Below are positions 2,484 to 12,269 of a stretch of 64,000 nucleotides of DNA, in pieces. Below the pieces are notes generated by a model. That model did no database searches, had not been told where the DNA came from, and saw only the letters and a list, made by a program, of their open reading frames with translations. A program made the translations under genes and the position numbers. This DNA is from a virus (Duplodnaviria > Caudoviricetes). The DNA lies in IMG/VR virus record IMGVR_UViG_3300005711_000021, positions 1 through 64,000 of that record. One strand, 5' to 3'. How positions within the stretch are numbered: the stretch's first letter is position 1; each line of letters begins with the position of its first letter.

Positions 2484-2741
2484 TTTAAGTCTCCTATGAC
2501 AGTGGCATGACGTTGCATGTTATTCCAATCTGTCGCCTTTGTTTTGATGAGATACCCAGGGCTAATATTCTTACTCAAGAGTAACATCATATATATCTAG
2601 TCCCCCTAGAAATTTTTTCAATTTTTCATTTTACATATGGAGTTTTCAGAATATTTTTTTCATTTCACTATTTTAGTAAGATAGTTTATTATTAACGGTA
2701 TTAAAAGGTTATAAAAATAAAAAAATGGAGGATTTTTATTA

Positions 2742-3014
2742 ATGACAAATTTTTTAATTAATAATGATATATTGGCACAAGGTGAAATGACAGTTCAACA
2801 GCAACTTATTGATAATAAAATCTTAGTAACAGGTATTATGGAATTAAATACATATATTGATGACATCGTACAAATAGATACTGAATATTTTTTTATTGAT
2901 AATGTAACAGTAACAAAAGAGATATTTGGAACAAGTGAAAAGAAAGTAGTTTACGAATTTATCGGAAGCGTTTTTGGGATAGATAAAGAAGCTTTTAATA
3001 AGAAAGGAGAATAA
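2742..3014 (+). CDS. hypothetical protein
   Basis: ORF with SD GGAGG; first gene of the plus-strand region. Confidence 0.75.
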   Translation: MTNFLINNDILAQGEMTVQQQLIDNKILVTGIMELNTYIDDIVQIDTEYFFIDNVTVTKEIFGTSEKKVVYEFIGSVFGIDKEAFNKKGE

Positions 3015-3017
3015 ATT

Positions 3018-3728
3018 ATGTCAGATATAAATGAAATGATTGATGAAGCAATGGAAATAGAATCCGCTTCCGCCGCAGAACTTGCTGAAATAAAAGCAAG
3101 AAGAGAAGCATTAGAATCTAATGTAGGAAATGTTTGGGGACATTCAAGTTTAGGATTAGAAGCTAAAAGAGCGGCTATGACTATGTTATCAACTAAACAC
3201 GGAATGTATGCAAAAATACCTTTAGTATGTAAAGCACAAGAATGTCCATATAGTGAAAGTTGTTTAATTTTAAAATATGATTTAGCTCCATATGGAGAAC
3301 CATGTCCAGTAGAAACTGCTGAGATAGAAGCTCGTTATTCAGGATATTCTATGGATTTTGATATTGAAGGAGCAAGTTTTACAGATAGAGCTTTAGTATC
3401 AGAAATTATTAATTTAGATATTATGATAGAAAGATGTAAAGCTTTAATGAGTAAAGAAGGTGTACCTATTGTAGATGTAGTAGCAGGTATAGATGAAAAT
3501 GGAAATGTTTTAATGCGACCTGAAGTAAGTAAGGCAGTAGATGCATATGAAAAGTTTACAAAGAAAAGAAATGAAATTTATCAATTAATGGTAGCTACTC
3601 GTAAAGATAAGAAAGTGGATACAACAGAAGATATTGGTATACATACAATTATTGCTCAAGCAATTGATGCTGATGAAAATGGTGGTTTTGTTATTGACGA
3701 AAGACCAGAGGCATTTAAGGGGGAGTAA
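3018..3728 (+). CDS. Cys-cluster protein, candidate terminase small subunit
   Basis: CKAQECPYSESC...CP motif, helical body, position upstream of terL. The function is inferred from position only. Confidence 0.4.
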   Translation: MSDINEMIDEAMEIESASAAELAEIKARREALESNVGNVWGHSSLGLEAKRAAMTMLSTKHGMYAKIPLVCKAQECPYSESCLILKYDLAPYGEPCPVETAEIEARYSGYSMDFDIEGASFTDRALVSEIINLDIMIERCKALMSKEGVPIVDVVAGIDENGNVLMRPEVSKAVDAYEKFTKKRNEIYQLMVATRKDKKVDTTEDIGIHTIIAQAIDADENGGFVIDERPEAFKGE

Positions 3729-3731
3729 TAA

Positions 3732-4322
3732 ATGAATTTAGTAGATAAATATTTAATAGAATGTGTAGCGAATCGTAATTATAATTGGTGTACTCAAAAC
3801 TTATACATAAATGTAGACCAACCTTTTCTTCCTACATCTGGACAAGAAGAAATTTTATTAACTCGTGATAATGTAAAAGCATTTTTAATGCCGAGAGGAT
3901 CAGGAGCATCAACAATTATTGCTATGGATGCAATAACAGAAGCTTCATTAAATCCTATGAGTGAAGTTATGATATTTGTTCAAAATCAATTAGCAGTTTC
4001 TCAAATGTTAAAAAGAATAAAAGATATTTTAAACTATTCTTCTATAGAAACATTAAAAACGTCATTAAGAACAAATAGAGATCATATCTTATTAGATAAT
4101 CAATCAATTATAAAAATAGTAACACCAAATCCAGCTTGTTATGTAGGTTATCGTCCAAATGCAATGTATATAGATAATTTCGATATGATTAATAGCGAAG
4201 ATCTAAGTAATATCTTTAATAGATTGATGTATAGAACAAACAAAGTATTAATTATTGGAAACAATGTTAATAGCTATGAAGCAACTCAAAGAATTGTAAA
4301 CATCAATCAAAATCAAATTTAA
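3732..4322 (+). CDS. degenerate terminase-ATPase-like protein without nuclease domain
   Basis: Aligns by eye with the TerL N-domain: PRGSGAST (Walker A lacking Lys); GYRPNAMYIDNFDMI versus TerL GQRADAIYLDEVDYM. Confidence 0.65.
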   Translation: MNLVDKYLIECVANRNYNWCTQNLYINVDQPFLPTSGQEEILLTRDNVKAFLMPRGSGASTIIAMDAITEASLNPMSEVMIFVQNQLAVSQMLKRIKDILNYSSIETLKTSLRTNRDHILLDNQSIIKIVTPNPACYVGYRPNAMYIDNFDMINSEDLSNIFNRLMYRTNKVLIIGNNVNSYEATQRIVNINQNQI

Positions 4323-4336
4323 AGGAGGAAATAACT

Positions 4337-4666
4337 ATGAGTGCTAGTTGGAAGTCAGAAGCTGCAGAAAAATTACTAAATAATAGTGTGAAAAAACTAC
4401 ATTCAAATCAAGCTATTAATAGTGCTTTTGAATTTGTTGGTCAAGGTGCTGCCAATGCTTATCGATTTGGTAAAGAAGCTATGTCTAACCCAGATGGTAT
4501 TGTAGCAGCTGCTGAAACAGTATTTAAAGATGGTGATGCTTGGAACTATGGAAGAATTGCAGGTTCTTATATTGCAGTATCAAGTGCTGCTCGTATTGCT
4601 ACTGGAGGTGGCTTAACTCGTGATCGCAATGGTAATAATAACATTATTGGTATTCCTGGAATCTAG
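4337..4666 (+). CDS. small Gly/Ala-rich protein, possible internal virion protein
   Basis: SD AAGGAGG; hydrophobic segment IAGSYIAVSSAARIATGGG. Confidence 0.65.
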   Translation: MSASWKSEAAEKLLNNSVKKLHSNQAINSAFEFVGQGAANAYRFGKEAMSNPDGIVAAAETVFKDGDAWNYGRIAGSYIAVSSAARIATGGGLTRDRNGNNNIIGIPGI

Positions 4667-4681
4667 AAAGGATAAAAAGCG

Positions 4682-5344
4682 ATGGATGCATTAAAGAAAG
4701 TTGGAATGATTGGAGCTATAAGTACAACAGCTGCTTTAACTGGTGCGGGTGCTGGCATAGGTTATGTCGGTGGTGCAGCATGGGGTGGTAATACACCAGG
4801 TTCAGACATTCAAAAAAATGCAACAGTTGGTGCAATAGGTGGAGCAGCATTAGGTGCTACAGTTGGTATAGTTGGCGGAGTTGCTGCAATGAATCCTGTA
4901 AAAACTGCATCTGTTGTTGGTGGTGCTGCTTTAGGAGTTGCAGAAACAGCAGGAGCAGGTATTATAGGTGGAGCTGAGATTGCAGGTGCAGGCATAATAG
5001 GATTTACAACAAAAGGAGTTGCTCCTCTTGCTGTATATGGAGCACAAAAATATGCAAGTATTGGAGCAGGTGCTGTAAAAGGTATTGATAAGTTATTATT
5101 AAAAGATGATTTAAGAGAGTCTAATCTTTTAGGTAAAAAGTTAAACTTAGCAGGAAAAGGATTAGTTTATGGTTCTGCTTTAATGGCAGGAGCGAAAGAA
5201 GCTTTTAATGATTTTAATAGCAATCGCATGGGACAACGTGATGGACAAATTACTCGTGCAACACCTAGAACACCATCTTATGCAAATAATGCTGGAGCAA
5301 CTGGTGATTTAGTATTTGCAATGAATCGTAATAGAAGGGGGTAG
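4682..5344 (+). CDS. glycine-zipper hydrophobic protein, possible ejected or membrane-inserting virion protein
   Basis: Many GxxxG repeats in hydrophobic stretches (VGAIGGAALGATVGIVGGVAA). Confidence 0.65.
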   Translation: MDALKKVGMIGAISTTAALTGAGAGIGYVGGAAWGGNTPGSDIQKNATVGAIGGAALGATVGIVGGVAAMNPVKTASVVGGAALGVAETAGAGIIGGAEIAGAGIIGFTTKGVAPLAVYGAQKYASIGAGAVKGIDKLLLKDDLRESNLLGKKLNLAGKGLVYGSALMAGAKEAFNDFNSNRMGQRDGQITRATPRTPSYANNAGATGDLVFAMNRNRRG

Positions 5345-5349
5345 ATTTT

Positions 5350-5826
5350 ATGAGCGTTAGTTCTCAATTAGTAAAACGTAATGCAAAAAAAGGTATAAAA
5401 AAAGGAACAGAAGAAGCTGCTAAAAAATCAGGTTCTTTACTTGGGACCGCATTTAGTGTTGGTATGCCATTATACTTTGGTGCACAAGAATATAAGTCTG
5501 CACGAGAAGAAGGTAATGGTGTATTAATGTCAGGAGCTAGAGCTGTTGGTGATTTTGCTGTATCAGAAATGATGGGGTGGGGTTATCTAGGATTACAACT
5601 TGCTCCTATGATTCCAAAAGCAGCAGTAGGTGTTGCTGAAGGATTAAATACTATGTCACGTAATATGAATCGTGCATCAGTACAAGGTCCATTTTCAAAT
5701 GCAACATTTAATGATACACAACAAACTTATACAATGAGACAAGCAGGTATGCAACTTGCTCAAGCTAGTAAATATAACTTACAGCAAACACTTATGGGTA
5801 ATGAAGCTCAATATCTAAAATATTAA
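5350..5826 (+). CDS. hypothetical protein, possible internal virion protein
   Basis: ORF with amphipathic and hydrophobic helices. Confidence 0.65.
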   Translation: MSVSSQLVKRNAKKGIKKGTEEAAKKSGSLLGTAFSVGMPLYFGAQEYKSAREEGNGVLMSGARAVGDFAVSEMMGWGYLGLQLAPMIPKAAVGVAEGLNTMSRNMNRASVQGPFSNATFNDTQQTYTMRQAGMQLAQASKYNLQQTLMGNEAQYLKY

Positions 5827-5844
5827 GAAAGGAGGAAAAACTAA

Positions 5845-6984
5845 ATGGCAAGTTTAACAGATCAAGAATTAACAGGTTACAAGCCATCTGATAGTGGTAG
5901 TGGTATTCTAGTTCCAGAGCAGATAAAAATACAACAATCTAATAGAACTCAAAAAATGTTACCTTCTGATATTGCTCAAAAGAAAAAAGAACTTAGAAAG
6001 AAATTAGAAGGCGTTGAAAACAAAACTTATCATTATAAACAACAAAAAGAATATGAAAAAATATTCTCTGAAGAAAATCTAGATAATTTCTATAATTCTC
6101 CTGCAAAAAAATATGCTAGATCAAAAGAAGAAAATATTAAAGCTACTGATAAGATAGAAGAAAAAAGAATAAAAAATAGAGAAAGTAGAAAATCTCAAGC
6201 AGAGTTTGCTCACTCTAACGGATTAGATAAAAGAAAAACTAATGATTATTTTGAAGCATTAAAAACAAATCCTACCTTATCAAATGACAAAGATTTTGTT
6301 AATTATATGAATACGCATCAAGGAGAAAGTGGAACTAACTATGCTTCAGGTTATATCGGTCAAGAAACATTAAATAAAAAGATGTCTGTTCAACAACAGA
6401 ATGATCTTAAAGAGCGTATTAAATCCAGTCGAGCAGAAAAAGAAAAAATAATTGCTCAACAAGAAAGAAGCGGTTTTGTTGAAGCGACTCCTGGAAAAAA
6501 AATGCGTAACATGGAAGAAAGAATCGCTTATCAAAATTCTGATAGAGGAAAGGCAGAAAAACTACTTAAGTCCAGAGATGAAAATGGTGTATTAAGATAT
6601 GATATAGGTTCACAAGTTTATAACGACGTTGAAAAGCAAGTTGGACCTAGACCATTAGATCCTGATTTGCCAGATTATGATTATTCTCGCCTAGAGAAGA
6701 TTGTAGGAAAAGACAAGAAGATGCAAAAAAAGATTGCTAATTTAAAAGCTCAAGATGCTGCAGAAAAAGCAGCTAGAGAAACAGCAGAAAACGTAACTGA
6801 AGCAGCAGGTAAAGCTGTTAAAAATAATGCTGAGGATGCAGCAAAAAAACTTACTAAAACAAAAGTTGGACGAATTGCAGCAGCAGTGGGTGTAGGAGCT
6901 TTAGTAGTAAGTAATATGAATAAGAATAAAGGACAGCAACCGAATGGTCAACTTTATGGCCAACAAACGCCTTATAGTTATTAA
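5845..6984 (+). CDS. K/E/Q-rich protein with C-terminal hydrophobic helix
   Basis: SD AAAGGAGG; C-terminal segment RIAAAVGVGALVVSN. Confidence 0.7.
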   Translation: MASLTDQELTGYKPSDSGSGILVPEQIKIQQSNRTQKMLPSDIAQKKKELRKKLEGVENKTYHYKQQKEYEKIFSEENLDNFYNSPAKKYARSKEENIKATDKIEEKRIKNRESRKSQAEFAHSNGLDKRKTNDYFEALKTNPTLSNDKDFVNYMNTHQGESGTNYASGYIGQETLNKKMSVQQQNDLKERIKSSRAEKEKIIAQQERSGFVEATPGKKMRNMEERIAYQNSDRGKAEKLLKSRDENGVLRYDIGSQVYNDVEKQVGPRPLDPDLPDYDYSRLEKIVGKDKKMQKKIANLKAQDAAEKAARETAENVTEAAGKAVKNNAEDAAKKLTKTKVGRIAAAVGVGALVVSNMNKNKGQQPNGQLYGQQTPYSY

Positions 6985-6999
6985 GAGGAGGTTTTTCTT

Positions 7000-7206
7000 A
7001 TGGCAATAACTAAAAAGTTATCAACCGTAGAGGCAAAACGTATTCAAGAAATTATGCAAGACCCTGTAAAATGGGCACAAGTCTTTGTAACAATTTTTGA
7101 TAATGCTGCCAAAAAGAAAACGCCTTGGATTGCACGATGGTATCAAGTAGAAATGCTTAGAGACAGAAGTCTCAAAAAAGTAGCTCGATGTGGTAGACGT
7201 ACGGGT
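7000..7206 (+). CDS. terL: terminase large subunit, exon 1 (69 codons)
   Basis: Q-motif WYQVEML and the first part of Walker A (RCGRRTG); joins KTET at 8549. Confidence 0.9.
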
Positions 7207-7490
7207 AAAGTGTTTTGCCCATATGCCACGAATTGACGGGGAAAGGCTTAGAGCTCTTTCTACTAACTTATGATGGTGACATACATAAGGGCGTTGCTAA
7301 TCACAACGATATAGTAAAAAAGAAAGAGATTGTTTAATCCGCAGCGATGTATCTTAAAAAGGTTTGGGAGAGCTATTAAATTTTTAAGATAAGCGTTCAG
7401 AGACTACCAGCTTAGCTGGCGATATAAAAAGTAATTTTTATGTTGGGTGTGGCACTTTCAAAATCATATAATTCCTAAAGGAGAGACTTT

Positions 7491-8006
7491 ATGTTATTCA
7501 AAAAAACAAGAAATTTAAAAGACAAAATTTTTAGCACAACAATCGATTTTGTTGATTTTGGAGAACGTGATGACTTAGGAGAAATTAAGCAAGACTCTAA
7601 AGAAAAAGAGCAAGATTTAGTAGATAACTTTGGAGCACCAAAAATTTCAGTAGGAAAAGAATTTACAGGTCATGCACAAGTAGAAGATGGAAAAGTAAAA
7701 CTTGTAGCGTATACAAATGGTTTAAAAGAAACATGTATTAGTTTTATTCTTTCTGATAAAGAACTTGATGTAACAACAGGATTTTCTGCAGGTATCTCAG
7801 TAGATGCTAAAAAAGAAAAAGCTGTAGAAGGTAAATTAACTGCTGAACAAGTAGCAGAAGCTAAATGTTTAATTTTTGAAGAAGAAATTAAAAAACGTTT
7901 AACAGCAGCTATTGAAGGATTAAAAGCTAAATATACTGCATTTGAATTAGAAGAGCTAGAAGAAATTGCAATTCCTGTTCCTCCAAGCATAAGTCATTCT
8001 CATTAA
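7491..8006 (+). CDS. intron-encoded protein A (no homing-endonuclease motif)
   Basis: SD AAAGGAG; 171 aa, acidic; lies between P3' and J8/7 of intron 1. Confidence 0.85.
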   Translation: MLFKKTRNLKDKIFSTTIDFVDFGERDDLGEIKQDSKEKEQDLVDNFGAPKISVGKEFTGHAQVEDGKVKLVAYTNGLKETCISFILSDKELDVTTGFSAGISVDAKKEKAVEGKLTAEQVAEAKCLIFEEEIKKRLTAAIEGLKAKYTAFELEELEEIAIPVPPSISHSH

Positions 8007-8031
8007 TTAAAACTTTAAAGGAGGTAATTAT

Positions 8032-8448
8032 ATGCAATTAAGAATTAATACAAGTATAAAAAAATCTATTATTACAGTAGAACTTGAAACAGTTAACTTT
8101 TGTGCAATAGAAGATAAAATGCTTGATCAATTTGGAGAACCTGTATTTGATTTTGAAAAAATGTATCAACAAGAATTTCCTGTAAGCATACATAAAAAGA
8201 TTAGAACAAACTTTAAAGTTAAAGTTAGATTCGATGGCACTAAAGATATTGATAAAGCATCATTAGCTGTTAACGAATTTATCGATGATATTAAAGAAGC
8301 TTTACCATTATTAATGGAAACATTCATGGATAAAGCAGAAATGATTGATTTAAATGCTGGAACAGAAACAGTCAATATTATTTCTCACTATCATCCTAAT
8401 CAATACAGTAATAATCCAAGACATCCTGATATAGGATACTATCATTAA
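8032..8448 (+). CDS. intron-encoded protein B, apparent paralogue of A
   Basis: SD AAAGGAGG; EDKMLDQFGEP resembles EQDLVDNFGAP of protein A. Confidence 0.85.
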   Translation: MQLRINTSIKKSIITVELETVNFCAIEDKMLDQFGEPVFDFEKMYQQEFPVSIHKKIRTNFKVKVRFDGTKDIDKASLAVNEFIDDIKEALPLLMETFMDKAEMIDLNAGTETVNIISHYHPNQYSNNPRHPDIGYYH

Positions 8449-8548
8449 TCTCCCATAATAAAAGAAGATATAGTCCGAACATCTAGGTAACACCTAGAGA
8501 GCTAGGGTAGAAATGCCCTAGCCTTCCCTACGGGGAAGTAACACAATG

Positions 8549-8848
8549 AAAACAGAAACCATGTGTATCGAAATGCTTTGGAAAGCGTTTACGAAACCAT
8601 ACCATCGTATATTAGTTGTAACACCATATGAAAACCAAGTGCGTTTAATATTTACACGTTTAATGGAAATTGTAAGAGACTCTCCATTAATATCAAATGA
8701 ATTAAAGAAATCAACAAAAAACCCTTATTGGATAGAATTTAAAAACGGTGCAATCATTCTTGGTTTTACAACTGGAGCAAGTTCAGGTTCTGGTGGAGCA
8801 TCTATTCGTGGACAACGTGCTGATGCTATCTATTTAGACGAAGTGGAT
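8549..8848 (+). CDS. terL: terminase large subunit, exon 2 (100 codons)
   Basis: KTET completes Walker A; ends in Walker B IYLDEVD. Confidence 0.9.
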
Positions 8849-9179
8849 TAACAAATCATGATATAAAAGCTATTTTTAAAATAACATGTGGTCCACTATA
8901 AATTCCGTTAATTAGGTGGAAGCTGTAAAATGCTAACAACCTAGCGAAGTATTTATAGAAATATAAATATGTGCTGAACGACTAGAGGATGAGTCTAAAG
9001 ATTTTTTCTATGGCAATAAAATTCCTCCACGAAAGCGGGACACTTTCTTAATGTCTTATCGTCAAGAATCATTCATTAAGATAATGAGATAGTCTAGACT
9101 GGGTTGGAAACAACCAACCGATGAAAATGAGGGAAACCTCCAGAGGCTAAGATAAAGAGCTTAGCGTTAATAACAATCG
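8849..9179 (+). ncRNA. group I intron 2 of terL (group IA-like, no ORF), 331 nt
   Basis: P1 AGTGGAT(8842-8848)/GTCCACT(8891-8897) with U.G pair; P7 GACTA(8980-8984)/TAGTC(9090-9094); terminal G 9179; splicing gives DEVD|YM. Confidence 0.9.
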
Positions 9180-9629
9180 TATATGACAGAAGCTGACTTC
9201 GATTCTGTAATGGCAATTGCAGGTGAACGTCGAGATATTACAATATTCATGTCATCAACACCTACTGGTAAGCGTTCTAAGTTTTGGAAAGCATGTACTG
9301 ATCCTAAAATGGGATTTACTGAACATTATCATCCTTCTACTCATAACCCTAACTGGGGGCCAGAGATGGAAGCTGAATTTAGGGCTCAATTATCAGAACA
9401 AGGGTTCGTTCATGAAATCCTTGCAGATTTCGGAACACAAGATACAGGTGTATTTAATAAAGATAAAGTAGATTTAGCATCACAACAATTATGTTATGCT
9501 TATAATGATTTAGATTATTATCAGCTTGAACGTTGTAAACATCAAAATTTAGTTCCACAAATTTTAAAATATGATAAAGCAAATAGAGCTCCTAATAACC
9601 CATTTCGCTGTATGGGCGTCGATTGGGAT
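9180..9629 (+). CDS. terL: terminase large subunit, exon 3 (150 codons)
   Basis: Coupling motif SSTPTG; ends at the nuclease motif MGVDWD. Confidence 0.9.
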
Positions 9630-10005
9630 TATGAAATATTGTCCCTTTTTGTAGTAATGCAATCAAAAGAACAAAGTGAATTGACGGGGAATTCCTTAGA
9701 GCCTTAATAACCAAATTATCATGGCAACATAGATAATGGCGTTGCTAACTACAACGGTACGGTAAAATAATTAAGGATTGGAAGATCCGCAGCCGAGCTA
9801 CTTAATTAAGTAGAAGGTTCAACGACTATCCCATAGGTCCTATCGTAGGACAACAGGAGTACGGCCAAGTGGCGGGTGAAAATCCCTTAATCGGAAGTGC
9901 TGCATCCTAATTATAGGATGATGATATAGTCTCAACATCTAGGGAAAGCCTAGAGCAGTTCGTAACAGAACGGTACAAGCGTAACGACCTTGTATGAAGA
10001 TCATG
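9630..10005 (+). ncRNA. group I intron 3 of terL (no ORF, related to intron 1), 376 nt
   Basis: P1 GGGAT(9625-9629)/GTCCC(9641-9645); P element AATTGACGGGGA 9679-9690; Q ATCCGCAGC; P7 GACTA(9824-9828)/TAGTC(9927-9931); terminal G 10005; splicing gives GVDWD|KFG. Confidence 0.9.
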
Positions 10006-10827
10006 AAATTTGGAGCAAGTTCATCTATAATAATTTTAGATTATGATGTTATACAGCAAAAGTTTAAAGTAATAAAAAGAGTAGAAGTTCCTCGTGGAGA
10101 TTATTCTTATGATAATGCTGTTAATCTTATTATTGAACTAAATGATATTTATAGACCATCATGGATCTATTGTGATGCAGGTAGTGGTGAATATCAAATA
10201 GAAAGATTACATATTTATGGTGAAGAAAATCCACATACTGGACTTCGTAATAAAGTAAAACGTTGGCAATTCAAACAAACAATTGATATTGTTGACCCTG
10301 TTACTTTTCAAGTTCACAAAGAACCGATGAAACCATTCATGGTTACACAATTACAAATTGTATTTGACCGTGATAAAATGATTTTATCGCCATTCGATGA
10401 AGTGCTACATAAACAATTAATAGATTATGAAGTAGAGAAAATTGGTGCTAATGGTAATCCAGTCTTTACTTCTGTAAATGAACACTTCGTTGATGCACTC
10501 GGTTTAGCTTATTTAGCATTTGTACTGGAATTCCCAGAGTTAACAAATGTCGTAAAAAAACCTGAAGCAACAGCTATTATAGAAAGTTCTCCTGTACAAT
10601 TAGGTGGAGCAGGTCTTAATAAATTATTCCACTCTATCGAAACAAGTGCAGTAGCTTCTGGATTCAAAGCTGTGTTAAATCATGATCCAACAGAGTTACC
10701 TGGTGATAGACCTACTACGGTAAAAGTACCACTTAGTTATAGAAGTGGGGCTTCATCAAATGGTTCATGGGGATCTAGAGCAGCTGGTTCTAAACGAGGA
10801 AACTTTGGTGGACGCTCAATGTGGTAG
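10006..10827 (+). CDS. terL: terminase large subunit, exon 4 (RNase H-like nuclease domain)
   Basis: IYCDAGSG and NEHFVDALGLA nuclease motifs. Confidence 0.9.
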   Translation, partial: KFGASSSIIILDYDVIQQKFKVIKRVEVPRGDYSYDNAVNLIIELNDIYRPSWIYCDAGSGEYQIERLHIYGEENPHTGLRNKVKRWQFKQTIDIVDPVTFQVHKEPMKPFMVTQLQIVFDRDKMILSPFDEVLHKQLIDYEVEKIGANGNPVFTSVNEHFVDALGLAYLAFVLEFPELTNVVKKPEATAIIESSPVQLGGAGLNKLFHSIETSAVASGFKAVLNHDPTELPGDRPTTVKVPLSYRSGASSNGSWGSRAAGSKRGNFGGRSMW

Positions 10828-10932: not shown

Positions 10933-11970
10933 ATGAAGAAAATTTTTTATAGACCTAATCTAGGTTTACCAAAAAGATATGATACAGATGGATATGTAGA
11001 ACCTTATAGAGAGTCGATATCCTATGATGAAGAAACAAATGAATCAAAAGAAGAAACGCTTGAAGATATAGCTGAACAAATATTATCTTTACAAAATGTA
11101 ATCGTACGATTACCTGATGAAATGCAACCAGCTATTAATATAATGCTTAACACTTTACAATTCATTTTTATTCAAATCGATCCAGACTACATACCAGAAT
11201 CAAATAAGAATAATACAGATAGCACAGATGATATAGATACTAATGGTACAAACATTAATAGCACAAATAAAGAAAGTATAGAAGATGATTCTGATATCGT
11301 TATAACAGAAATAGATGACGAAGATGATGATGATGATGAAATGGAAAATAGTATATTGTTTTCTGATGTTGTACCAAATGTAATTATTAAAACTATACCA
11401 AAGGATAAAATTAAATTGATAAACAAAACATATTGTGTTACACTTTTAGAAATAACAAAAGATTACATTAATGAGTTAAAAAAAGTAACTACTCAATATT
11501 TTATGGATATGGGAATGTTAATAATGGAGCATGATAAACTCAATATAGATTTTCTTGAAAAGAAATATACATATAAAACAACAGATTTAAAAAGCAAAGA
11601 CTTACAACATGTTTCAGATTTTATCATTAAATCTCAAATCGTAAGAAATCAAAAACAACGATTAATGGATAAATTGATTAATGAAGAAGAATCTCTTAAT
11701 AAGATAAAAGCATGTGAAGTCGCAAGAGAATTAAGTATTCGTTATGCAAAAGAAGAATATCGTAACAATACTGTTTATCATGACTTATTTAGTAACATAT
11801 CTCTAAAAGAATCGAGATTATCCTATGAACAAAAAATGGATAATAATTTATACGAGTTATATAAATACATGAATAGCTCAGTAATATTATTAGATGAATG
11901 CCTACGTTTATATATGCGAGAGGCACAAGCTAAATCTATTTTAATTAAAGAAGAGGGGATTAAATTATGA
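10933..11970 (+). CDS. hypothetical protein with a very acidic internal tract
   Basis: 345-aa ORF with SD GAGGTG; contains DDEDDDDDE. Confidence 0.8.
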   Translation: MKKIFYRPNLGLPKRYDTDGYVEPYRESISYDEETNESKEETLEDIAEQILSLQNVIVRLPDEMQPAINIMLNTLQFIFIQIDPDYIPESNKNNTDSTDDIDTNGTNINSTNKESIEDDSDIVITEIDDEDDDDDEMENSILFSDVVPNVIIKTIPKDKIKLINKTYCVTLLEITKDYINELKKVTTQYFMDMGMLIMEHDKLNIDFLEKKYTYKTTDLKSKDLQHVSDFIIKSQIVRNQKQRLMDKLINEEESLNKIKACEVARELSIRYAKEEYRNNTVYHDLFSNISLKESRLSYEQKMDNNLYELYKYMNSSVILLDECLRLYMREAQAKSILIKEEGIKL

Positions 11971-12269
11971 TTAGACCAACACATGACAATTTATTAGTAG
12001 AAATCCAAGTTCAAAATGAAAAAGAAAAGAAAACAGAATCAGGTATTATTTTAACAGCTAGCAAAAATCAACCTGTAGAAAAAGAAAGTACAGGTTTTGT
12101 TGTAGCAGTTGGTAAGGGAAGATATTTAGCAAGTGGACATATTATACCACCTTGTGCAAAAGTAGGAGAAAAGATTATCTTTAATAAATTCGCTGGAACA
12201 GAAATTGTTGATGGTGAAAGAACGTTTTTACTTATTAAAGAAAATGACGTATTAGGAATTATTGAATAA
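11967..12269 (+). CDS. groES: phage-encoded co-chaperonin GroES
   Basis: IRPTHDNLLV, mobile loop KTESGIIL, GFVVAVGKG, KFAGTEI and LLIKENDVLGIIE are all Cpn10 signatures. Confidence 0.92.
   Translation: MIRPTHDNLLVEIQVQNEKEKKTESGIILTASKNQPVEKESTGFVVAVGKGRYLASGHIIPPCAKVGEKIIFNKFAGTEIVDGERTFLLIKENDVLGIIE

Follow-up and report, generated by a model that had tools for sequence, protein, structure and literature searches.

Three group I introns at catalytic motifs of the terminase large subunit gene in a large uncultured phage

Introduction

Group I introns are known to interrupt the gene for the large subunit of the phage terminase (terL). In Bacillus phages of the Bastillevirinae, terL has up to two to three such introns with IA2-like ribozymes, and the open reading frames (ORFs) in Bastillevirinae introns encode HNH, GIY-YIG or VSR endonucleases (PMC11878797). 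For SIOphi TerL, self-splicing has been reported both in vitro and in vivo, together with exon skipping (PMC11878797). In the 'Jug' jumbo phages of the gut, terL is divided into two to three fragments by group I introns, and metatranscriptome reads confirm splicing (PMC12880540). The locus analysed here is a terL gene at positions 7000-10827 of a 64,000-nt stretch of phage DNA (the window), which is positions 1 to 64,000 of IMG/VR virus record IMGVR_UViG_3300005711_000021 (117,989 bp, estimated to be ~50% complete). An earlier description made from the letters alone (the sequence-only reading) implied that a terL with several introns is rare, an implication that the published two- and three-intron genes do not support (PMC11878797, PMC12880540). 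We assign a probability of about 0.9 to the reading that the locus is one terL with three group I introns at catalytic motifs, carried by an uncultured large phage with affinity to 0305phi8-36 and Moorella phage MTATph1, and that the introns are relics of homing.

In the T4 td intron, which encodes I-TevI, and the SPO1 DNA polymerase intron, which encodes I-HmuI, the ORF, which specifies a homing endonuclease, forms a loop outside the ribozyme core; sequestration of the ribosome-binding site is known for I-TevI. A fungal mitochondrial rnl intron encodes rps3, a host ribosomal protein. The IStrons of C. difficile are group I introns with non-homing cargo, namely transposases near the 3' end (PMC3984707). 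The orf142 gene of Staphylococcus phage Twort reportedly has three ORF-less introns of the IA2 type, two of which are alike (Landthaler and Shub, 1999, cited in PMC11878797). Terminases can also be interrupted at the protein level, as in mycobacteriophages, whose terminases carry inteins (PMC5050341).

Exons of terL and the predicted spliced protein

The gene is divided as follows:

7000..7206, + strand: terL exon 1, 69 codons, ends ...GRRTG, last base U7206
7207..8548, + strand: intron 1, group I, IA2-like, 1342 nt, terminal G (omega-G) at 8548
8549..8848, + strand: terL exon 2, 100 codons, KTET...LDEVD; rest of Walker A, arginine-finger region and Walker B
8849..9179, + strand: intron 2, group I, 331 nt, no ORF, omega-G at 9179
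9180..9629, + strand: terL exon 3, 150 codons, YMTE...GVDWD
9630..10005, + strand: intron 3, group I, 376 nt, no ORF, omega-G at 10005
10006..10827, + strand: terL exon 4, 273 codons and a stop, KFGASS...; rest of the nuclease domain (putative) and the C-terminus

Joined, the four exons form a reading frame of 1779 nt (592 codons and a stop) with no internal stop codon, and every junction lies in phase 0, exactly as the sequence-only reading had placed them. Two uninterrupted proteins, the TerL of MTATph1 (tblastn E 7e-149) and gp117 of 0305phi8-36, align with the spliced TerL along its full length; in alignments to intron-less homologues the spliced protein is colinear with the uninterrupted ones through all three junctions. 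The closest isolates by tblastn are MTATph1 and Bacillus jumbo phages of the 0305phi8-36 type. Pfam family PF03237 / Terminase_6N matches exon 2 (E 3.5e-11), and PHROG terminase families match exons 2 and 4, the latter through phrog_2 (terminase large subunit, E 5e-4).

The catalytic motifs were assigned with a profile built from eight TerL homologues. The GRRxGKT and LDE of this profile align with the two Walker motifs, A and B respectively, in the P74-26 TerL ATPase structure (4ZNI, E 2.9e-5), which bears out the claim that joining the exons restores Walker A (GRRTG|KT) and Walker B (LDEVD|YM). When an uninterrupted homologue was compared with the PDB by phmmer there was no match; only the profile reached the P74-26 ATPase. 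The third junction (GVDWD|KF) likewise reads as proposed. Its label as a nuclease motif is less firm: both Asp residues of GxDxD are invariant in 8/8 homologues, with no structural match, and GxDxD probably belongs to the nuclease domain.

Intron identity and splice sites

All three introns end in G and begin behind an exon U that forms a U.G pair at the end of helix P1, in line with what had been read from the sequence. These bases are U7206.G7217 and G8548 in intron 1, where the U.G pair is invariant in 5/5 relatives with an intron at site 1, U8848.G8891 and G9179 in intron 2, and U9629.G9641 and G10005 in intron 3. The helices at the splice sites of introns 2 and 3 are:

8843-8848/8891-8896: P1 of intron 2
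8885-8890/9180-9185: P10 of intron 2
9625-9629/9641-9645: P1 of intron 3

P10 adjoins P1 in introns 1 (GUUUU/AAAAC, 5 bp) and 2 (CAUGUG/UAUAUG, 6 bp). Against the Rfam group I model RF00028, intron 3 scores 65 bits over the full model (positions 1-253, E 3e-14), above the gathering score of 50. Two stretches of the core are shared by introns 1 and 3 at 77-83% identity.

Comparison with relatives fixes the sites further. For this, 30 related loci (L numbers) were taken from IMG/VR, Logan, ENA and NCBI assemblies, and the spliced TerL was mapped onto them. Intron 1 of L007 starts with GAAG where that of the window starts with AAAG, which removes the ambiguity of the AAA and sets the splice site after GGU. 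The exon strand of P1 and its intron guide covary at site 1, where L026 has ACAGGU/GCCUGU, and at site 2, where both strands are changed in L022 (AUAGAU/GUCUAU) and L018 has the GUGGAU/GUCCAC of the window. Intron 2 and its L022 counterpart at site 2 are 76% identical, and P10 of intron 2 is kept in L018.

Intron presence and absence among relatives

The relatives serve as natural controls. Four metagenomic relatives (L012, L020, L021 and L023) have a terL that is uninterrupted across all three sites. L010 and L034, with TerLs 74% and 90% identical to that of the window, are without introns 2 and 3, and L007 and L031 are without intron 2. At the very nucleotide where intron 1 is inserted, L013 and L029 have short introns free of cargo (288 and 265 nt). 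Eight inserts in the terL genes of relatives pass the Rfam threshold.

The polymorphism at site 3 also suggests how an ORF-less intron arose. The intron that L007 has at this site matches the two halves of intron 3 of the window at 95% and 92% identity. A LAGLIDADG gene (230 aa) separates its 5' splice site from its guide sequence, and the L008 intron is the L007 intron minus 540 nt internally. This series implies that intron 3 is what a homing intron finally becomes once its endonuclease is lost. The earlier claim that no intron has a recognisable homing endonuclease thus holds for this genome, with the qualification that intron 3 is a LAGLIDADG-less form of the L007 intron and that intron 1 is not ORF-less. 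Further group I introns in the relatives' terL genes occupy sites at about codons 161, 201-216 and 380, as well as one 8 nt 5' of site 3, and several of them carry LAGLIDADG genes. In L029, terL (2600-7131) has at least five insertions. Four RF00028 matches exceed the threshold, further short inserts occupy site 1 and a place close to codon 380, and one of the insertions contains a LAGLIDADG gene.

These comparisons bear on the idea that terL is a decaying, non-functional gene of a defective phage or prophage and that its inserts are junk. Gene callers do report only fragments, and the record is incomplete. The exons, however, have neither frameshift nor stop and are 96-99% identical at the protein level to relatives that differ in their introns; the ribozyme folds are conserved and covary, and their U.G and omega-G coincide exactly with the phase-0 junctions; and the surrounding window is a dense plus-strand run of phage structural genes, intact over 64 kb. 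Decay is therefore extremely improbable.

The codons around the P-loop are a target of inteins as well. TerL inteins interrupt GRR|TGKT in L016, L025, L027/L028, L032 and L033, and GK|T in gp116 of Bacillus phage vB_BceM_WH1 (L002). They are ~400 aa long, start with CLPGW or CIPGW, end with THN, and lie at most two codons from the site of intron 1:

L016, about 3978-5242: P-loop intein
L025, about 3978-5239: P-loop intein
L027, about 3389-4650: P-loop intein
L032, about 5225-6423: P-loop intein
L033, about 5230-6428: P-loop intein

The ~1260-nt site-1 inserts of L016, L025 and L027 were considered as ORF-less introns, a reading rejected since they are in-frame inteins. The site-2 insert of L033, whose 5' boundary is not resolvable, was left out. 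In the Walker B region of L033 (about 6700-6745) the protein reads ...ADGYVFFVD, compared with ...LDEVD in the others; L033 has either a degenerate TerL or an extra intron or mini-exon.

The fold of intron 1

Intron 1 is the longest of the three, and its ribozyme is folded around coding sequence. Helices P1, P3, P4, P5, P5b, P6/P6a, P7.1 and P7.2 were drawn by hand from the sequence and its likeness to intron 3:

7201-7206/7217-7222: P1
7212-7216/8549-8553: P10
7225-7229/7449-7453: P3
7234-7240/7338-7343: P4
7254-7261/7321-7328: P5
7292-7296/7304-7308: P5b
7344-7360/7381-7394: P6/P6a
7402-7406/8471-8475: P7
7407-7419: P7.1
7422-7443: P7.2
8482-8498: P9
8501-8522: P9.1
8523-8538: P9.2

Covariation was scored in an alignment of five relatives, with cargo proteins 30-88% identical to those of the window, for the 5' domain and of six sequences for the 3' domain; as a control, pairing partners were slid by 1-3 columns. 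In the 5' domain (57 pairs, 280 cells), 93.9% of cells hold standard pairs, compared with 39-49% after sliding, and compensatory double changes occur in 23 of the 57 pairs, compared with 3-5 in the slid controls. The 3' domain (P9, P9.1 and P9.2) is 95% paired, with eight compensatory pairs; over both domains together, the slid controls are 33.6-63.9% paired, with 0-5 compensatory pairs. P3 (GCCAC/GUGGC) and P7 (GACUA/UAGUC) bridge the cargo, and a closing P8 stem surrounds it in every relative. P7.1 and P7.2 are 100% paired, with compensatory changes, and their presence makes intron 1 IA2-like; a rigorous subgroup assignment is confined to this intron. A Moco riboswitch at 8438-8557 (+ strand) was rejected: the match reaches 22.8 bits where the gathering score is 36, and we take it for a chance likeness of the stacked P9/P9.1/P9.2 hairpins.

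The fold speaks to a reading in which intron 1 does not splice in cis. The 69-aa N-terminal piece would then be a separate gene, TerL would consist of two polypeptides or be made by trans-splicing, and the two genes in between would be ordinary ones. The length of the insert (1342 nt), the free-standing copies of its two genes upstream of terL in L012, L032 and L033, and the lack of a full Rfam match are compatible with this. The break, however, lies inside the P-loop (GRRTG|KT), which is unlikely to function as two chains. The flanks of the cargo make a full covarying group I core (P1-P10), in which P3, P7 and P8 pair across the cargo, and the short cargo-less introns of L013 and L029 occupy the same nucleotide. 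Separate genes are very improbable, and an intron spliced in cis remains the preferred reading of the insert.

The cargo genes of intron 1

The two genes inside intron 1, which the sequence-only reading omitted, are:

7491..8006, + strand: ORF1, 171 aa, in loop L8, Shine-Dalgarno sequence AAAGGAGAG, no known domain or fold
8032..8448, + strand: ORF2, 138 aa, in loop L8, Shine-Dalgarno sequence AAAGGAGG, no known domain or fold

Both have strong Shine-Dalgarno sequences and lie wholly within L8. Each has ~18 database relatives at 34-88% identity, and ratios of nonsynonymous to synonymous substitution rates (dN/dS) of 0.12-0.41 indicate purifying selection. Between the window and L007, the TerL exons are 96-99% identical, whereas the cargo proteins are only 86-88% identical (dS 0.22-0.31); either the cargo evolves faster than the terL exons or it has been exchanged by recombination.

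Neither protein has a Pfam or PHROG match, and neither matches a known endonuclease family (LAGLIDADG, GIY-YIG, HNH, PD-(D/E)xK or EDxHD), although a new nuclease fold would escape such a comparison. The AlphaFold (AF2) models are confident, with a predicted local distance difference test score (pLDDT) of 86 for ORF1 and 81 for ORF2; each model is a beta-sheet followed by a long helix. A Foldseek search with the ORF1 model gave nothing at E <= 0.001 (best 0.086 in the PDB and 0.022 in BFVD), a wide VIA-align search with both models gave unconvincing best Z scores of 4.6 (ORF1) and 5.2 (ORF2), and the ESM Atlas gave no lead. The N-terminal 50 residues of ORF1 and ORF2 align with each other (hhalign E 0.002, probability 14%), and the two may be distant paralogues. 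The idea that the cargo is TerS is not supported: there is no helix-turn-helix or TerS match, and near-complete relatives lack both genes.

Cargo relatives were drawn from a protein database and from exact-match contig look-ups; a scan of viral contigs with ORF1 and a scan of JGI metagenomes with an ORF1 alignment gave no matches. In L012, L032 and L033 the cargo homologues are free-standing, directly upstream of the terL start; terL is uninterrupted in L012 and has a P-loop intein in L032 and L033. No remnants of exon 1 or of an intron were found upstream of these free-standing copies. Each of two separate, well-supported clades of the TerL tree contains both intron-nested and free-standing copies, and in a third clade (L018) the cargo is nested in a far more compact ribozyme. 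The pair is found directly upstream of terL or in an intron ~200 nt into terL, and in no other place, while relatives' genomes estimated to be 82-94% complete have no copy. The cargo genes are thus accessory, patchy and always linked to the 5' end of terL. In nearly all cargo-bearing lineages the P-loop DNA is broken by an intron or an intein.

This distribution has led us to consider whether ORF1 and ORF2 may form a mobile or selfish cassette of a new kind, linked to the P-loop of terL: either a two-subunit homing endonuclease with an unrecognised fold or an accessory module associated with packaging, for which the intron would be a shelter. The cassette would fit the absence of the genes from the 82-94% complete genomes, their fixed position beside terL, their alternation between two states in two clades and the interrupted P-loops. 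It resembles a route reportedly proposed by Bonocora and Shub, in which homing endonuclease genes pass from a free-standing to an intron-borne state. We regard such a cassette as unlikely.

A conserved UCUCC just 3' of the ORF2 stop codon pairs with the Shine-Dalgarno sequence of ORF1 in the window and in L007, L031, L034 and L010, so ribozyme folding and cargo translation may compete. This pairing, which extends P8, is an argument for supposing that the introns are kept for regulation, with GTP- or translation-dependent splicing timing the synthesis of TerL and intron 1 coupled to translation of its cargo. The retention of intron 1 across three TerL clades points the same way, and a 'molecular on-switch' has been discussed for Bastillevirinae introns (PMC11878797). 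Introns 2 and 3, however, come and go among near-identical relatives, which fits selfish elements and not a required switch; the pairing is also absent in L026. We consider such regulation unlikely.

Splicing, homing and the limits of the evidence

The preferred reading is that of homing introns in a functional terL. The gene would be transcribed as a pre-mRNA of ~3.8 kb, from which the three ribozymes would excise themselves, each by two GTP-initiated transesterifications. Excision would rejoin the codons at the P-loop (GRRTG|KT), just past the Asp-Glu of Walker B (LDEVD|YM) and just past GxDxD, and packaging would depend on these three splicing events. The introns would be remnants of endonuclease-driven homing: intron 3 would have lost its LAGLIDADG gene, intron 2 is without an ORF, and intron 1 holds two non-endonuclease genes in its P8 loop, for which either the pre-mRNA or the excised intron probably serves as the message. 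That the introns sit at catalytic motifs would follow from the preference of homing endonucleases and inteins for the most conserved codons; it is established that homing endonucleases aim at functionally critical codons (PMC3984707).

Several points count against this reading. Splicing of the terL introns is something we infer from gene structure and predicted RNA folds. Intron 2 matches RF00028 over the full model (46.9 bits, E 5e-10) but falls short of the curated gathering score of 50. Intron 1 as a whole is not recognised by Rfam; there is a partial match to P3'-P7, and the 5' half reaches only 15.4 bits (E 0.11). The whole intron is missed because 960 nt of coding cargo in the P8 loop split the core. 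P10 of intron 3 amounts to just ~2 bp, and the covariation sets for intron 1 are small (5-6 related sequences). The C-terminal half of TerL has no Pfam or PDB sequence match, which weakens the assignment of the nuclease motif. Finally, these four pieces are the only terL found in the 118-kb source record, and as the record is ~50% complete a second terL may lie elsewhere in the genome.

The three-intron terL is real and correctly delimited, and as a case of a known kind it is ordinary; what is unusual is the two-gene, non-endonuclease cargo of intron 1. Gene callers give four or more fragments from such a gene, along with spurious ORFs, and the clade will be missed or misplaced where phage detection and phylogeny depend on TerL. 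Within one gene the clade presents an intron life cycle, from empty sites through endonuclease-bearing introns and introns with a partly deleted endonuclease to ORF-less ones, together with inteins at the same codons and up to five or more insertions per terL. The intron 1 ribozyme stably hosts two purifying-selected non-endonuclease genes across a TerL divergence down to ~59% identity. It is a test case for the way in which group I introns acquire cargo and for the question whether translation of the cargo and folding of the ribozyme disturb one another.

Other genes of the window and its source record

Three further observations concern neighbouring genes and a site outside the window. A paralogue of the TerL ATPase domain (196 aa) has weak Terminase_6N / TerL_ATPase matches (E about 1e-3) and is kept upstream of terL in L012 (3366-3956), L032 (1421-1987) and L033 (972-1538). 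A gene for a GroES/Cpn10-like co-chaperonin (PF00166) lies between terL and the portal gene and is present in all relatives. Outside the window, a DnaE-type DNA polymerase III alpha gene is split by what may be a fourth group I intron (RF00028 30.8 bits, E 2.4e-7): the ORF on one side breaks off, and that on the other picks up, at position 103 of Pfam DNA_pol3_alpha.

3732-4322, + strand: TerL ATPase-domain paralogue
11967-12269, + strand: GroES/Cpn10-like co-chaperonin gene
G000:C1:98258-98599 (locus L006, about 1494-1817): group I intron candidate outside the window

Comparison with known systems

The best DNA match of the introns is to SIOphi: the cores of introns 1 and 3 match ~150 nt of its intron at ~80% identity, and the matching stretch lies between the SIOphi TerL fragments, inside the TerL intron. 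The Bastillevirinae and SIOphi share with the present phage both the host gene and the IA2-like ribozyme type, but they belong to an unrelated phage lineage, the TerL described here being nearer to those of 0305phi8-36 and Moorella MTATph1. The ORFs of Bastillevirinae introns are endonucleases, whereas intron 1 holds two non-endonuclease genes. Twort orf142, as reported, is similar in having three introns in one late gene, including a similar pair comparable to introns 1 and 3; its host gene specifies a tail tube protein, in contrast to terL here. As in T4 td and SPO1, the ORFs of intron 1 are placed in a peripheral loop, but this cargo matches no endonuclease family. The Jug and crAss-like phages are likewise uncultured large phages with intron-fragmented genes, alongside which inteins and homing endonucleases occur (PMC12880540). 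The Jug phages belong to another clade and have another TerL family, and no non-endonuclease cargo is described there (PMC12880540). TerL inteins interrupt the same P-loop codons and are spliced at the protein level; here splicing would occur at the level of RNA. For the cargo itself the nearest analogues are the IStrons and the rnl intron with rps3, neither of them close: the cargo of intron 1 is a phage gene pair in L8 that also occurs free-standing beside terL.

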